Below, in pieces: positions 42,860 to 56,807 of a stretch of 64,000 bases of DNA (its first letter is position 1; the number at the start of each line of letters is the position of its first letter). A program made the translations under genes and the position numbers. The stretch is taken from contig PAQX01000033.1 of assembly GCA_002709835.1 (NCBI GenBank), forward strand, positions 8,538-72,537, given 5' to 3'. The stretch comes from Deltaproteobacteria bacterium. Lineage in GTDB: Bacteria; Myxococcota_A; UBA9160; UBA4427. Under the pieces are notes generated by a model. It did not search any database and was not told the DNA's origin. It saw nothing but the letters and a program-made list of their open reading frames with translations.

Positions 42860-43519
42860 ATGGGCCTTTTTGCCCACTCCCCAGGGATTCATATGTTCGG
42901 CGAAGACCCCAAGCACGAGCGCGAGAAGGGCCCCCTCTCCGACGAAGGGGCAGACCGGGACGGGTTCGTTCGCGCGGCGCTCTTCTTTTACGGCGCGCTC
43001 GGCTGCATCGCCCTCGTGTGGCGCATGTCGACCCCGGGCGCCTCGATCCTCCATGCGCCCGATCACCCGACGTCATTCGACGGGGTCGGCGGGGCGCTGC
43101 TCGCCGGTCTGCTGGTCGGCGGGATCTCTTTGGGCCTCTCCGAGGCGCTCACCCGTCTGAGCGATCTCGGGGAGTCCCTCGCCGACACCCTGGGCGAGAG
43201 CCTGGTCGGGATCTCCACGGCGGACGGCATCCTGCTCGCCTTCGCGAGCGGTGTGGCAGAGGAGATGTTCTTCCGCGGTGCGTTGCAACCGACGGTGGGC
43301 CTCGTCTGGGCGAGCGTGCTCTTCGGGGCGTGTCATTTCCTGCCGCGGAAGGAACTCGTGCTCTGGAGTGTCTACGCGGTCGCGATGGGGTTCGCGCTCG
43401 GCTGGCTCTTCGAGGCCACCGGCCATCTCGTCGCCCCGATGGCGGCGCACGTGCTGGTGAATGCGGTCAACCTCCCGCGTCTGGCGCGGCGGGCGGAAGA
43501 ACGGTCGCGGGGCGGCTGA
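42860..43519 (+). CDS. CPBP (CAAX) family intramembrane glutamic protease
   Basis: Motif 1 GVAEEMFFRGAL, motif 2 FGACH, motif 3 HVLVN, within TM helices. Confidence 0.85.
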   Translation: MGLFAHSPGIHMFGEDPKHEREKGPLSDEGADRDGFVRAALFFYGALGCIALVWRMSTPGASILHAPDHPTSFDGVGGALLAGLLVGGISLGLSEALTRLSDLGESLADTLGESLVGISTADGILLAFASGVAEEMFFRGALQPTVGLVWASVLFGACHFLPRKELVLWSVYAVAMGFALGWLFEATGHLVAPMAAHVLVNAVNLPRLARRAEERSRGG

Positions 43520-49658: not shown

Positions 49659-50174
49659 ATGGCGGACGAAACGACGCAAGCCCCGGAGGTCCTGGTCGGG
49701 ATCGTGATGGGCTCGACCTCGGACTGGCCGACGATGAAGAACGCGGCGGAGGTGCTCGAGGCCCTCGAGATTCCGCACGAGACGCGGGTCGTCTCCGCGC
49801 ACCGGACGCCCGACCTCCTCTTCGAGTATGCGGAGACCGCATCGGACCGAGGCCTCCGCGCGATCATCGCGGGTGCCGGCGGTGCGGCGCACCTGCCGGG
49901 CATGCTCGCGGCCAAGACCTGGGTGCCCGTCCTCGGGGTGCCGGTCCAGAGCAAGGCCCTCTCCGGGATGGACTCGCTCCTCTCGATCGCCCAGATGCCC
50001 GGAGGCATTCCCGTTGGCACCCTCGCGATCGGGAACTCGGGGGCGAAGAACGCGGGACTCCTCGCAGCGGCGATGCTCGCGACGACCGACGAGGGCGTGC
50101 GGAAGCGGCTCGAAGAGTGGCGCGCCCGGCAGACGGCCGACGTGCTCTCGAAACCCGACCCCAGCGTCGACTGA
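49659..50174 (+). CDS. purE: 5-(carboxyamino)imidazole ribonucleotide mutase
   Basis: [14 protein letters not shown].......L......[10 protein letters not shown]...........G....[22 protein letters not shown], the canonical class I PurE pattern. Start is ATG 49659. Confidence 0.93.
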
Positions 50175-52459: not shown

Positions 52460-52918
52460 CTACTCGCCGTTCACGAGTTCGTAGATCGCGTACTCGACGC
52501 AGTCCGGATGCATCCGGCCCTCGCCGACGGCGATCACCCGGGTCAGCCACGCATAGCGTTCGTCGGCGCACTCGAAGCGCACGTGGGTCAGGAACGGGTT
52601 GTCTCCGAACTCCGTCGATTGCCCGGCCGCGAGCTTTCCCTGGACGGTTTCGTTGAAGTCCATCAGTCCCGAGTACCGCATGTAGATCGGCGCATCGTCG
52701 TTCGTGCGGAGCATGAGGCGGACGTCCACCTGCCCGAACCCGTCTCCGGCGTCGAGGAGCCACTCGCCTCCCGGAGGGAGGACGACACCCGAGAGACGCT
52801 CGCCTTCGAAGGTGCCGCCGCTGACCGCGAAGATCTGCCGCGTGCCTATGGGGGTCGGGCCGATCAGCGTGGGGGCGTCGACGGTGGCTTTCAGCTGAAA
52901 AAGGTGGGCGAGCTTCAT
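52460..52918 (-). CDS. DUF3237-like beta-barrel protein
   Basis: ...IGPTPIGTRQIFAVSGGTFEG.RLSG.VLPGG.W......G....DVR..L.T.DGA.I...Y.G is the pattern of DUF3237. Lies 9 nt upstream of the sulfotransferase gene. Confidence 0.7.
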   Translation of the reverse strand: MKLAHLFQLKATVDAPTLIGPTPIGTRQIFAVSGGTFEGERLSGVVLPPGGEWLLDAGDGFGQVDVRLMLRTNDDAPIYMRYSGLMDFNETVQGKLAAGQSTEFGDNPFLTHVRFECADERYAWLTRVIAVGEGRMHPDCVEYAIYELVNGE

Positions 52919-53013: not shown

Positions 53014-53859
53014 ATGGGCTTCACCGACTTCGATCATCACATGGCCTTCGTGAACGGCCAGCAGATTCACTACGTCCGGGCCGGAGAAGGTCCGGCGGTC
53101 GCGCTCCTGCACGGCTGGCCCCAGACCTGGTACATGTGGCGCAAGGTCATCCCGGCGCTCGCAGAGCGGTACACGGTCCTCGCGCCGGACCTTCGCGGTT
53201 TCGGACAGTCGTCGAAGCCGCTGGACGGTTACGACAAGCGCACCGTCGCCGTCGACATCTACGAGCTCGTCCGTTCGCTCGGCTTCGAAGACGTGGCGCT
53301 CGTGGGCCACGACATGGGCGGACCGACGTCGTACGCCTACGCGTGTGCCCACCCCGATGAAGTCCGGCGCCTCTGCATCCTGGACGTCGCGATCACGATC
53401 GACGAGTCGGAGCAGGCGGAGTACTACAAGCGCCTCTTTCACCTCTCGTTCAACGCCGAACCGGACATCGCGATTCAGCTCGTGACGGGCCGTGAGCGCG
53501 AGTTCCTGACCCACTTCTACCGGCGCTGCTATAACCCGGGCGCCTTCAGCCTGGAAGACATCGACGAGTACGTGGCCGCGTTCTCGGCGCCGGGAGCGAT
53601 GCGCGGGAGCATGGCCCACTACGGCGCGCTGCCGCTGGACCTGAAGCACAACCAGGAAAACGCCGAGACGAAGCTCGAGATGCCGGTCCTCGCGCTGGGC
53701 GGCGCCATGAGCTTCGGGGGCGGTGTGAAGAAGAGCCTCGAGGCCGTCGCGAACGACGTGCGCGGAGGCGTAATCCAGGGCTGTGCCCACTGGATTGCGG
53801 AGGAGCAGCCGGAGCGGTTGCTCGAAGCGCTCCGGCCCTTCCTGGCCGAGGACGACTGA
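53014..53859 (+). CDS. alpha/beta hydrolase (epoxide hydrolase / haloalkane dehalogenase-like)
   Basis: LLHGWPQTWYMWRKVIP.L (HGWP oxyanion motif), nucleophile elbow VGHDMGG, C-terminal GCAHWIAEEQPE (catalytic His). Confidence 0.88.
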   Translation: MGFTDFDHHMAFVNGQQIHYVRAGEGPAVALLHGWPQTWYMWRKVIPALAERYTVLAPDLRGFGQSSKPLDGYDKRTVAVDIYELVRSLGFEDVALVGHDMGGPTSYAYACAHPDEVRRLCILDVAITIDESEQAEYYKRLFHLSFNAEPDIAIQLVTGREREFLTHFYRRCYNPGAFSLEDIDEYVAAFSAPGAMRGSMAHYGALPLDLKHNQENAETKLEMPVLALGGAMSFGGGVKKSLEAVANDVRGGVIQGCAHWIAEEQPERLLEALRPFLAEDD

Positions 53860-53965
53860 GTCGGCGGCGGTCGCTCGAATTGCCTACGTTCGCGGCTCAG
53901 GGAGTCGGTCGCCTCGCGGCGAAGGGTCGTCGCGAAGGAGGTCGCTCCGTCAGCAGGAGCCAACC

Positions 53966-54442
53966 ATGCTTGCAGTTGGGAGCGATGCGCCCGACTTCTC
54001 GGCGCAGGACCAGGACGGGAACACCGTCACGCTGTCCTCGTTGTCCGGGAAGTGGGTCGCCCTATGGTGGTATCCGAAGGCCTCGACGCCGGGTTGAACG
54101 CGTCAGGGCCACGGGTTCCGTGAGCAGAAAGATGCGTATGAAGGAGCGAATGCCGTCGTGATCGGCGTCTCCTTCGATTCGGTGGCGGATCAGAAGACGT
54201 TCGCCGACAACGAGGGCTTCCCCTACGTGCTCTTGTCCGACCCGGACAAGGCCATGGGGACGGCCTACGACGCTTGTCGCCAGGAAGGCGAGAAGTATTT
54301 CGAAGCCGGGATTCCGCGACGGATCAGCTACCTGATCAGCCCGGACGGCAAGATCGCGAAGGCCTACGACGTCGAGAACGATGGACTCGACCTCGACGGG
54401 CACGCTGCGGCGGTCCTTGCGGACATCCAGAGCGCGAGTTGA
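53966..54442 (+). CDS. bcp: BCP/PrxQ-type peroxiredoxin with in-frame TGA (54095-54097) at the peroxidatic position; candidate selenoprotein (alternatively a nonsense pseudogene)
   Basis: AGGAG SD plus ATG 53966. MLAVGSDAPDFSAQDQDGNTVTLSSLSGKWVALWWYPKASTPG-[TGA]-TRQGHGFREQKDAYEGANAVVIGVSFDS...LLSDPD...RISYLISPDGKIAKAY is collinear with Bcp over 158 codons. Track ORFs 53783..54097 and 54158..54442 share one frame. Confidence 0.7.
54098..54137 (+). promoter_or_regulatory. SECIS-like stem-loop immediately 3' of the in-frame UGA
   Basis: G54108-C54125, C54109-G54124, bulged A54123, C54110-G54122, A54111-U54121, C54112-G54120, G54113-C54119, apical loop GGUUC. An outer ACGC(54098-54101)/GCGU(54134-54137) helix. 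Loop centre is about 19 nt from the UGA. Confidence 0.45.
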
Positions 54443-54530
54443 TCGTCCGGGCGCTGGCCCGGATCGCAGAACGAAGACGCCCGGACGAGTCGATCGTCCG
54501 GGCGTTCCTCGTTCCAGAGGCGCGGCCTGC

Positions 54531-55031
54531 CTAACGCTTGTGCGCGTCGAAGGTTCCGTTGAAGGCGATCACGCGATCGTCGATCCGATCGCTGCGTCCC
54601 GAGAAGTCCGCGCGGAGTCCGGGTTCGACCTGTTCCGTCGCGAGGGGCAGGACGGCCTCGATCCCGGTGTAGTCGAGGTGGATCACCGCATCGATCCCGT
54701 CTTGCGTAGGGCGACCGACGATCTCGAAGCGCACCCGTGCGTCGCCGTGTTCGCAGACGCCGCTTCCCATCTCGGTCTCGCCGGTGAGGTCGGCAACGGT
54801 CAGCGCCACGTCGGCGATGTAGTCGAAGGCCCGTTCCTCGGCGGGGCCGTAGGTCTGGAAGCGGGTCTCGGTCACGAGGAGGAAGAACACGTCGTCGCCT
54901 ACGTACCGGCCGGCGGTCTCGAAGGACGGGGCGGGCGTTCCGGTCGCGGCGGCCCGGGGGCTCGCGCGCGTGGCGAGGAGGGCGAGGGAGACGAGCAGGA
55001 CGACGGCGGTCAGGGCGAGGCGGCGAATCAT
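54531..55031 (-). CDS. secreted hypothetical protein
   Basis: Signal peptide MIRRLALTAVVLLVSLALLATRA. 166 aa, no family recognised. Confidence 0.6.
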   Translation of the reverse strand: MIRRLALTAVVLLVSLALLATRASPRAAATGTPAPSFETAGRYVGDDVFFLLVTETRFQTYGPAEERAFDYIADVALTVADLTGETEMGSGVCEHGDARVRFEIVGRPTQDGIDAVIHLDYTGIEAVLPLATEQVEPGLRADFSGRSDRIDDRVIAFNGTFDAHKR

Positions 55032-55150: not shown

Positions 55151-55588
55151 TCAGGCTCGAATCCGCCAATGGACGAGCGTGTAGGGCGGCTCGGCCTCAT
55201 GGTGCTCGAAGACCGGATCGACGGTCGCGCCGATCGGGATCTCGCCCTCGGGAGGGGCCACGAGGTTGCCGACCATGCGGATCCCGTCCGCGTCGGGGAA
55301 CTCGACGAGGACGACCACGTAGGGGCAGGCCTCGGCGAGCACCGGGTGGACGGGATGATGCGGGCGCTGCCAGCTGTAGATCCGCGCCTCGCCGGGGACC
55401 GGCGCGAACTCGAGATCGAAGGAATGGCAGCGGTGGCAGAGATGTTCGGGGGTCCACTGCCAGGTGCCGCAGGCGTTGCAGCGCTGGGCGACGAGCTCGT
55501 CACGGGCAGCGGCGTCCCAGTAGGGACCGTCGAGCTCGTCGGGCATCGGCCGGGGCAGGCCTTCGGGCAGTACGAATGAATCGTTCAC
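55151..55588 (-). CDS. Zn-ribbon/OB-fold protein (DUF35 family)
   Basis: CNACGTWQWTPEHLCHRC ribbon followed by an OB-fold (YVVVLVEFPDADGIRMVGNLV). Lies downstream of a thiolase-like gene. Confidence 0.85.
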   Translation of the reverse strand: MNDSFVLPEGLPRPMPDELDGPYWDAAARDELVAQRCNACGTWQWTPEHLCHRCHSFDLEFAPVPGEARIYSWQRPHHPVHPVLAEACPYVVVLVEFPDADGIRMVGNLVAPPEGEIPIGATVDPVFEHHEAEPPYTLVHWRIRA

Positions 55589-55619: not shown

Positions 55620-56807
55620 TCACAGCGTGGCCTCCGAGCCGAAGAGGGAGTTGGTGGCCGGCACGACCATCGGTCCCGAGTTCACGAAGGCGACCTCGGC
55701 GCCCTCGACCTGATTGGGCGAGGTGCCGCGGATCTGGCGGACCGCTTCGATGTTCAGCTCGAGGCCGTGCATGTAGCACTCGGCGAGGTTGCCGCCGCTC
55801 GTATTGAGGGGGAGCTTGCCCTTCGGTGCGATCAGGTTGTCGAAGGCGATCACTTCGTTGGCGTTCTCGTAGGTGCAGAAGCCGTGTTCGATCAGGCTCA
55901 TGACCACGCCGCCGGTGAAGTTCTCGTAGCTCTGGACGACATCCACGTCCTCCGGTCCGAGCTCCGCCATCGCGAAGAGATCGGGCGCGACGGTCTTGAA
56001 GCTCGAGGTCGCATAGTCGGGGTTGTTGTGGCCGCCGGCCCCGGCGCGGTACTCCGCCCCCTGCGCCGCGCCGAGGAGGTAGGCGGGCTTCTGCTTGAGG
56101 TCCTTCGCGCGGTCCGCGGGCACGAGGATCAGCGCGGCGGCCCCGTCGTTCTCGAGACAGCAGTCGAAGAGGCGGAAGGGCTCGGTGATCCAGCGCGAGT
56201 TGTCGTAGCCATCCACGTCGAGGGGGCGCCCGTGCATGACGGCGCGCGGGTTGTTCTGGGCGTGGTGGTAGGAGGCCATCGAGATCGCGCGCAGGGTGCT
56301 GCGCGAGATCCCGTGGTCGTGCATCAGGCGCGTCGTGCGCATCGCGAACATCTGCGCCGGCGACATCACGCCGTAGGGGATCGTGTGGGCGTAGGAGCCG
56401 GCGAGTGCGCCGGGGTAGCCCGCGCCCGAACCGAAACGTCCGCCCTGGCCCTGGGCCAGCCCGCGGTAGACGACGACGCAATCCGCGACGCCGGCGTGGA
56501 TCGCCATGGCCGCATTCCCGATGGCTCCGGAGCCGCCGCCTCCTCCGCCGCCCCACACCATGTTCGCGAAGCGGAGGGACTTCATGCCGAGCGCGGCCGC
56601 GACCCGGTCCGCCGGATTCTTGTCGTCGGCGTACGAGGCGATCCCGTCGATCTCGCACGGATCGATCCCAGCATCCTCTGCTGCAGCGAGGATCGCCTTC
56701 AGCGTCAGCTTGAACTGCGCGTCTGGGGACTGGCCGTGTTTGTAGTAGGTCGTCTCGCCGATTCCGGCGACGGCGACCTGACCGCGCATCGTTCGTTTCG
56801 TTCGCAT
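55620..56807 (-). CDS. thiolase-like / SCP-x-type lipid-transfer protein
   Basis: Last 395 codons of the 734-aa track ORF: QVAVAGIGETTYYKHG..., ...NTSGGNLAECYMHGLE... AGGAG SD upstream of ATG 56807. Confidence 0.88.
   Translation of the reverse strand: MRTKRTMRGQVAVAGIGETTYYKHGQSPDAQFKLTLKAILAAAEDAGIDPCEIDGIASYADDKNPADRVAAALGMKSLRFANMVWGGGGGGGSGAIGNAAMAIHAGVADCVVVYRGLAQGQGGRFGSGAGYPGALAGSYAHTIPYGVMSPAQMFAMRTTRLMHDHGISRSTLRAISMASYHHAQNNPRAVMHGRPLDVDGYDNSRWITEPFRLFDCCLENDGAAALILVPADRAKDLKQKPAYLLGAAQGAEYRAGAGGHNNPDYATSSFKTVAPDLFAMAELGPEDVDVVQSYENFTGGVVMSLIEHGFCTYENANEVIAFDNLIAPKGKLPLNTSGGNLAECYMHGLELNIEAVRQIRGTSPNQVEGAEVAFVNSGPMVVPATNSLFGSEATL

Follow-up and report, generated by a model that had tools for sequence, protein, structure and literature searches.

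A predicted selenocysteine-containing BCP/PrxQ-type peroxiredoxin and its candidate SECIS hairpin in a marine Myxococcota bacterium

The prokaryotic 'Prx' selenoprotein family carries a TxxU motif and corresponds to COG1225, i.e. Bcp (PMC1088965 Table 1; PMC9312934). With 43 sequences, it was the second most abundant family in the Sargasso Sea (PMC1088965), and 253 sequences were reported from GOS (PMC2398784 Table 2). A PxxxTxxU motif has been described for these selenocysteine (Sec)-containing peroxiredoxins (PMC13188914), and Cys is inferred to have been converted to Sec five times independently within the Prx family (PMC1794560). Among Myxococcota, Anaeromyxobacter possesses 11 selenoproteins, three of which are peroxiredoxins (PMC1794560), while marine Acidimicrobiia (Actinomarina) carry selA, selB, selC and selD (bioRxiv 10.64898/2026.04.03.716425). 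PrxU is the only Sec-containing peroxiredoxin that PMC13188914 cites as experimentally characterised (ref. 83 therein).

Here we analyze a gene located in a 64-kb stretch of DNA (hereafter, the window) from a marine Myxococcota bacterium. The original prediction, made from the DNA letters alone, proposed a Sec codon in a BCP/PrxQ peroxiredoxin followed by a SECIS-like hairpin, and our comparative evidence strongly supports this central reading. It had also regarded a BCP-type Sec enzyme as unusual; this view does not hold, since TxxU Prx proteins belong to COG1225 and have formed a recognised, abundant marine family since 2005.

Reading frame, protein family and active site

Translation from the ATG at 53966 to the terminal TGA at 54440–54442 is broken only once, by the TGA at 54095–54097 (Table 1). 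The ORF list places two ORFs, 53783..54097 and 54158..54442, in the peroxiredoxin frame, in agreement with the initial description of two same-frame ORFs separated by a single TGA.

Table 1 Coordinates of features at the peroxiredoxin locus (positions in the window).
Feature	Position	Strand	Details and basis
Shine-Dalgarno-like sequence AGGAG	53955..53959	+	6 nt 5' of the ATG; read from the sequence
Predicted selenoprotein gene, 158-codon BCP/PrxQ-type peroxiredoxin (157 sense codons plus Sec)	53966..54442	+	Translation, Pfam, PDB, dN/dS, collinearity
Active-site motif P37-K-A-S-T41-P-G-U44 (PxxxTxxU)	54074..54097	+	Pro37, Thr41 and codon 44 invariant in 81 sequences
In-frame UGA at the peroxidatic position, very probably read as selenocysteine	54095..54097	+	TGA in 81/81 sequences
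Outer helix ACGCGUC/GAUGCGU around the hairpin	54098..54137	+	Arms 54098-54104/54131-54137; window and L083 only
Full upper stem: G108-C125, C109-G124, bulged A123, 5-bp core	54108..54125	+	MFE fold
Candidate SECIS core, invariant block CACGGGUUCCGUGA: stem CACGG/CCGUG, loop GUU (or 4 bp, loop GGUUC)	54110..54123	+	
Codon of Arg119, catalytic Arg of the peroxiredoxin active site	54320..54322	+	Invariant in 81 sequences
G+C-rich inverted repeats between convergent genes	54444..54505	.	TCGTCCGGGCG / CGCCCGGACGA / TCGTCCGGGCG; read from the sequence

The 158-residue read-through product matches the Pfam AhpC/TSA family (PF00578; E 3.7e-34) over residues 4–132, spanning profile positions 1–123 of 124 and thus essentially the full domain. 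Its top NCBIfam match is Bcp (PRK09437), at 98 bits under a 140-bit equivalog cutoff, and none of the NCBIfam models reaches its own cutoff on the read-through protein. A PDB search returned BCP/PrxQ from Xanthomonas campestris as the best solved-structure matches (E ~1e-22). In these alignments, YPKDSTPGCTTEG lies opposite YPKASTPG[TGA]TRQG, which places the TGA exactly on the peroxidatic-Cys column, and Arg119 lies opposite the Arg of the Xanthomonas ER(S/T) motif. Together, the Pfam, PRK09437 and Xanthomonas BCP matches confirm the Bcp type assigned to the read-through protein, and the structural alignments confirm the location of the stop on the catalytic column, both of which had been proposed originally. 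Downstream of the gene, a terminator-like match on the minus strand (54505–54477) falls within the inverted repeats, which are likely a terminator region common to both convergent genes.

Conservation of the TGA codon and selection on either side of it

A single scan of GTDB species-representative genomes yielded 80 loci, giving 81 sequences with the window. Loci L001–L010 belong to Myxococcota/'Deltaproteobacteria' MAGs and share 68–92% identity with the window protein; L011–L080 belong to Acidimicrobiia (53–65% identity) and include the complete chromosomes of Ca. Poriferisocius and Ca. Aldehydirespirator. The peroxidatic column holds TGA in 81/81 sequences, down to an identity of ~53%. A metagenome scan contributed 55 further loci. 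Every closer relative among them that covers the column (L083–L127) has TGA; the distant BCPs L132–L134 have TGA as well, and three other loci (L128, L129 and L131) have TGC. Over many kilobases, the window and the Myxococcota MAG loci align collinearly at ~70–85% nucleotide identity, indicating that the chromosomal position of the gene is stable within a lineage of marine Myxococcota.

Nei-Gojobori dN/dS values between the window and its relatives were 0.05–0.27 upstream of the TGA and 0.10–0.41 downstream of it. Mean column entropies at codon positions 1/2/3 were likewise comparable, at 0.68/0.52/1.42 upstream and 0.66/0.56/1.34 downstream, and the peroxiredoxin catalytic residues Pro37, Thr41 and Arg119 are invariant across the 81-sequence alignment. 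These values indicate that the coding sequence is kept under purifying selection on both sides of the TGA; such selection downstream of the codon was one of the signs that the original prediction had suggested looking for.

The gene could alternatively be a pseudogene, in which a Cys-type Bcp acquired its TGA from TGC or TGT by nonsense mutation or through faulty sequencing or assembly. A single base change would suffice, gene callers see the locus as two ORFs, and one relative (L045) does look degraded, with an extra TGA at Trp30 and a CGT -> GGT change. Nevertheless, two phyla are represented among the 81 independent assemblies, all of which carry the TGA, as do the closer metagenome relatives; downstream dN/dS (~0.1–0.3) is the same as upstream, with the catalytic residues unchanged. 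The nonsense-mutation alternative raised at the outset is contradicted by this TGA conservation and downstream selection, and we consider a pseudogene extremely improbable.

A search of 5.8 billion proteins revealed that the closest relatives, at 65–91% identity, are almost all C-terminal fragments of 86–113 aa, and that C-terminal fragments beginning just past the TGA position make up ~80 of the 120 top-ranked database relatives. Fragments of this kind, starting past a stop, typically arise when a Sec codon goes unrecognised. No full-length relative exceeds 61% identity; those at 54–61% carry Cys and read PKASTPGCTIEG. Cys homologs at the peroxidatic column include P0002, P0003, P0005 and P0008; the alternation between Cys and Sec anticipated among orthologs therefore exists. 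Two database entries have W at this column, which corresponds to TGA translated as Trp.

The same fragments can be read in another way, with the TGA acting as a true stop and the locus producing a short N-terminal peptide and/or a separate C-terminal fragment initiated at GTG 54158. A GTG-initiated ORF of 94 aa does exist, and databases list such products. However, the internal start is not conserved, and the start points differ from one database entry to another (86, 91, 94, 101, 104 and 113 aa). Moreover, the segment from the TGA to Val65 is conserved in frame as protein, and splitting the thioredoxin fold at the active site, with loss of the peroxidatic residue, would abolish peroxidase activity. 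Genuine termination at this codon is, in our assessment, scarcely credible.

Two hairpin architectures downstream of the UGA codon

In the codon alignment of the 81 sequences, third-position entropy drops to 0 at Phe51 (TTC in 78/78) and Arg52 (CGT in 80/80), whereas the other Phe and Arg columns range from 0.8 to 1.8. Specifically, CGC, CGG and CGT occur side by side in the other invariant Arg columns (entropy 1.5–1.8), as do TTC and TTT in the remaining Phe columns. Elsewhere in the family, CGT is a minor choice for Arg, used by 11/81 sequences at the invariant Arg105. This synonymous-site constraint sits 18–33 nt past the UGA, at the distance expected for a bacterial SECIS. Among the sequences with the hairpin type of the window, the block CACGGGUUCCGUGA is identical in 20/20, including four synonymous third positions, while flanking third positions vary.

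The predicted hairpin at 54108–54125 is present as originally described, with a folding energy of -7.5 kcal/mol (-17.5 kcal/mol with the non-conserved outer helix) and a loop spacing within the SECIS range. We compared it with the bacterial SECIS consensus used by bSECISearch (PMC13188914 Fig. 2 legend), which comprises an apical loop of 3–9 nt, a stem of 4–16 bp, a G in the first two loop positions followed by G/U, a UGA-to-loop spacing of 16–37 nt and an MFE of -7.5 kcal/mol or lower (PMC13188914). The loop, GUU or G-GUU-C, and the stem, CACGG/CCGUG plus 2 bp past the bulged A, agree with the loop and stem rules; the spacing of 17 nt (54098–54114) lies within the range, and the MFE of 54108–54125 is exactly the threshold value. 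The window hairpin thus appears to fit the published consensus, supporting its designation as a candidate SECIS.

Folding energy alone did not distinguish the hairpin from shuffled sequence (z = -1.13), so its significance comes from the comparison with relatives. Among these, the stem extension varies between a bulged GGC..GAGC and a contiguous GGU..GAUC. No covariation was detected in the 20 window-type sequences, as the core is invariant. The longer ACGC/GCGU outer helix described in the original prediction can form in the window, yet it is not conserved: only 57.9% of cells are paired in the 20 relatives, no better than in shuffles. We therefore rejected its arms as part of the element, and the outer helix probably lies outside the conserved structure. 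A search of the window with Rfam at gathering thresholds, together with a permissive scan of 53900–54500, identified no SECIS or other relevant family. To our knowledge, Rfam holds essentially no bacterial SECIS models, making this result uninformative. The permissive scan returned only a chance snoRNA match (E 4.5).

The hairpin of the Acidimicrobiia, of 7 bp, involves the same frozen codons but is built differently: its stem is GGGRUUC/GARYCYC and its loop, located 21 nt from the UGA, is CGUGAYC. Pairing is retained in 97.7% of cells. At pair 24-38, 43 sequences have GC and 24 have AU, with 0 mispairs; the covariation score was reached by 0/500 shuffles, and slid registers collapse. This covariation is not a coding artefact, because a silent change in the third position of a Gly codon goes together with an Ile/Ala replacement. 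Hence, the hairpin covariation looked for following the original prediction is absent from the invariant core of the window type and present in the Acidimicrobiia type. The invariant GGN-UUC-CGU-GA contributes the 5' arm and loop in the Acidimicrobiia type, and the loop and 3' arm in the window type. By hand inspection, we rejected a single hairpin for both clades, with the window pairing at only 2/7 Acidimicrobiia-type positions, and likewise a window-type stem in Acidimicrobiia, which would contain a G-G mismatch.

Two metagenome relatives that are intermediate, with 75% identity, L090 and L092, still have the Acidimicrobiia-type hairpin. In a rough NJ tree, built with no support values, the Myxococcota clade nests among Acidimicrobiia sequences; the same tree, again with no support values, places Cys forms inside the Sec clade. 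The nesting of the Myxococcota and the two hairpin architectures (L090, L092) give a hint of horizontal transfer with SECIS remodelling. We tentatively raise the possibility, which we rate as rather unlikely, that the selenoprotein gene moved between phyla and that its SECIS was then remodelled to suit the SelB of the recipient. If true, this would represent a natural example of SECIS-SelB co-adaptation. The paired alternative hairpins on frozen codons could serve the study of SelB-SECIS specificity.

Decoding of the UGA codon and comparison with known selenoproteins

We searched for the Sec machinery by tblastn, using E. coli SelA, SelB and SelD from NC_000913 as queries. Neither the 64-kb window nor the 80 genome loci (flanks of up to 10 kb each) contained a match to selA, selB or selD. 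ARAGORN, run on these sequences, gave tRNA-Asn and tRNA-Gln only and no tRNA-Sec. Screening the window for further selenoproteins by in-frame TGA and codon-position GC left the peroxiredoxin gene as the only credible case; the in-frame TGA sites at 43517 and 50172 were rejected as non-coding-like by codon-position GC. Clustering of conserved in-frame TGAs in the locus flanks produced nothing credible besides Prx. Its output was dominated by high-GC genes whose off-frame translations are conserved as well.

The lack of Sec machinery matches in the window and in the 80 loci with their flanks, along with the public entries giving W at the codon, could favor a different decoding of the UGA, in which a suppressor or near-cognate tRNA, or a reassigned code, supplies Trp, Cys or Gly. 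TGA is, however, the commonest ordinary stop in the window, ending 26/40 long high-GC3 ORFs, including the peroxiredoxin gene itself, which indicates that TGA keeps its standard meaning; the W entries come from gene calls made under code 4. Furthermore, the catalytic column works only with Cys or Sec, and Trp or Gly would inactivate an enzyme that is nevertheless maintained by purifying selection. A conserved hairpin and frozen synonymous sites at SECIS distance would also have no role in such read-through. We therefore judge decoding as another amino acid very unlikely.

Based on the TGA in 81/81 sequences, purifying selection on both sides, the frozen synonymous sites, the consensus-fitting hairpin and Cys/Sec alternation, the window very probably contains an intact gene for a Sec-containing BCP/PrxQ-type peroxiredoxin, with the UGA at 54095–54097 encoding Sec. 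In the mechanism that we propose from the sequence and its relatives, this UGA would not be taken as a stop, and the hairpin starting ~11 nt downstream, whose GGUUC/GUU apical loop lies 17 nt past the UGA, would act as a bacterial SECIS and recruit SelB-GTP with Sec-tRNA(Sec). Insertion of selenocysteine at residue 44 would yield a thioredoxin-fold peroxidase of ~158 residues. By analogy with the family, the Sec44 selenolate would be activated by Pro37, Thr41 and Arg119 and attack H2O2 or an organic hydroperoxide, and the resulting selenenic acid would be reduced by a thiol reductant, most likely thioredoxin.

As for the resolving residue, the window protein has His at the +5 position, consistent with the absence of a resolving Cys noted initially, and Cys occurs there in only 4/81 sequences. 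Xanthomonas Cys84 (alpha3 position) lies opposite Ala, and Cys104 is confined to 9 close relatives. With no conserved resolving Cys, a one-Sec mechanism, equivalent to that of a 1-Cys peroxiredoxin, is most likely.

Bcp-type selenium peroxiredoxins have been known in marine bacteria for ~20 years, and the window gene is an unannotated, ordinary member of this group. Our results leave general selenoprotein knowledge unchanged, the two hairpin architectures with their hint of horizontal transfer being the only mildly new angle. The main consequence concerns annotation: with the Sec codon taken as a stop, public databases list the gene and >100 relatives as truncated 'peroxiredoxin Q/BCP' or as hypothetical proteins. 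If the gene were annotated correctly, a selenoenzyme would join the known antioxidant defences of marine Myxococcota and of Acidimicrobiia, both sponge-associated and pelagic, and these genomes would be marked as Sec users.

Among described systems, every testable feature of the window gene is consistent with membership in the long-known Prx (TxxU) family (pfam00578/COG1225; Kryukov, Zhang, Gladyshev). This family shares with the window protein an AhpC/TSA domain with Bcp as the best match, Sec in place of the peroxidatic Cys in PxxxTxxU, and a SECIS hairpin just downstream; it is abundant in marine metagenomes and also occurs in Deltaproteobacteria/Myxococcota such as Anaeromyxobacter. Compared through the published family description (representative WP_011365628.1), the window clade presents no essential difference. 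Cys-type BCP/PrxQ proteins (E. coli Bcp; X. campestris BCP, PDB 3GKK and 5IIZ) resemble the window protein in fold and length, and have in common with it the motif YPK(A/D)STPG-C/U-T and the catalytic Arg. In contrast, the window protein would carry Sec for the peroxidatic Cys and lacks both the +5 Cys of the E. coli type and Cys84 of Xanthomonas; the resolving Cys at +5 (alpha2) or alpha3 that characterizes atypical 2-Cys BCP/PrxQ is thus missing.

PrxU from Eubacterium acidaminophilum (NCBIfam NF040737) is a peroxiredoxin that likewise uses Sec as its peroxidatic residue, but it represents another Prx subfamily with a 233-position model. The cutoff of this model is 270 bits, of which the window protein reaches only 49.7; we therefore rejected this identity. 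The Prx-like thiol:disulfide oxidoreductase selenoproteins also combine an AhpC/TSA-related thioredoxin fold with Sec, but within a UxxC motif. The window motif is TxxU (T-P-G-U) with no Cys at +3, and the UxxC identity was rejected as well. A UxxC-type example, W-U-P-F-C, appeared among the metagenome loci (L135). Finally, like the bacterial SECIS prototype of E. coli fdhF, the candidate element in the window is a stem-loop within the coding sequence directly 3' of the UGA. Its G-U loop start, 17-nt spacing and bulged stem nucleotide fit the bacterial consensus, while the conserved core has a very short stem of 5 bp, and the energy lies at the threshold.

Hairpin types, a possibly degraded copy and mis-annotated entries

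Comparison of alignments A2 and A4 shows that the invariant GGN-UUC-CGU-GA codons 3′ of the Sec-TGA contribute to two distinct hairpins: the window type (CACGG-GUU-CCGUG) and the Acidimicrobiia type, which has a 7-bp stem and the loop CGUGAYC. The latter is retained in the metagenome loci L090:2590 and L092:1007, both with 75% protein identity to the window. An ortholog in an Acidimicrobiales MAG (L045:1155-1640, JBFJYB010000036.1) carries, in addition to the Sec-TGA, a TGA at the otherwise invariant Trp30 position, together with a CGT to GGT change at Arg52 in the SECIS core that occurs in no other sequence. This locus is probably either in decay or affected by errors of assembly; it illustrates how a genuine pseudogene appears within the Sec-peroxiredoxin family. 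In two entries of the public protein collection (P0006 and P0085), the Sec column is occupied by tryptophan (PKASTPGWT...), evidently a TGA rendered as Trp by the gene caller; this constitutes a second kind of mis-annotation, in addition to truncation.

Cys104 and the relationships of Sec and Cys forms

The only cysteine of the window protein, Cys104 (YDACRQEGEKY), is common to just the nine closest sequences, the remaining 72 having Glu, Val, Ser or Ala. Cys104 may act as a resolving residue specific to this lineage, or may have no relevance. In a neighbor-joining tree of Sec and Cys forms, calculated without support values, the Sec clade encloses the Cys homologs P0002, P0003 and P0005/P0008, and sequences from Myxococcota are placed among those of Acidimicrobiia. 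This topology suggests reversions from Sec to Cys and transfer between phyla.

Genomic neighborhood and other in-frame TGAs

The genes around the peroxiredoxin gene point to a setting of lipid/steroid-type β-oxidation, and none of these neighbors is a selenium-related gene or a redox partner. A terminator-like match lies on the minus strand at 54505-54477, and the G+C-rich motif region is probably a bidirectional terminator shared by the convergent genes. The locus L002 (CAZAUR010000017.1), labeled "uncultured Spirochaetaceae bacterium", is collinear with the window over >13 kb at ~80% nucleotide identity, as are the Myxococcota MAGs; this bin has probably been given an incorrect taxonomic label.

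Features in and around the peroxiredoxin gene
Feature	Position	Strand	Remark
DUF3237 protein	52460-52918	-	
Alpha/beta hydrolase	53014-53859	+	
Cys104 codon	54275-54277		
G+C-rich 11-nt motif, three copies/arms	54444-54505		TCGTCCGGGCG / CGCCCGGACGA / TCGTCCGGGCG; between peroxiredoxin gene and next ORF
ORF without Pfam match	54531-55031	-	convergent to peroxiredoxin gene
ChsH2-type zinc-ribbon/OB-fold protein	55151-55588	-	
Thiolase-like protein	55620-56801	-	

Beyond this gene, only two sites in the window, 43517 (+) and 50172 (+), have an in-frame TGA flanked by stop-free sequence of high GC3, and neither looks like a Sec codon: at 43517 the first-position GC is too high for a true coding frame, and at 50172 one gene seems to end and another to begin (…MEMKVGI).

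Sec in other homologs

A TGA also occupies the peroxidatic column in three distant BCP homologs from metagenomes (L132:2465, L133:624 and L134:531; 35-42% identity to the window protein), and Sec at this position is therefore recurrent across several BCP lineages. The second of these keeps a Cys at +4 (U-T-K-E-S-C). Among the weak matches, L135:1178-1579 (Ga0210396_10067868) encodes a different selenoprotein, with a UxxC motif (FFRSADW[TGA]PFCK), that belongs to the established "Prx-like thiol:disulfide oxidoreductase" family of Sec proteins.
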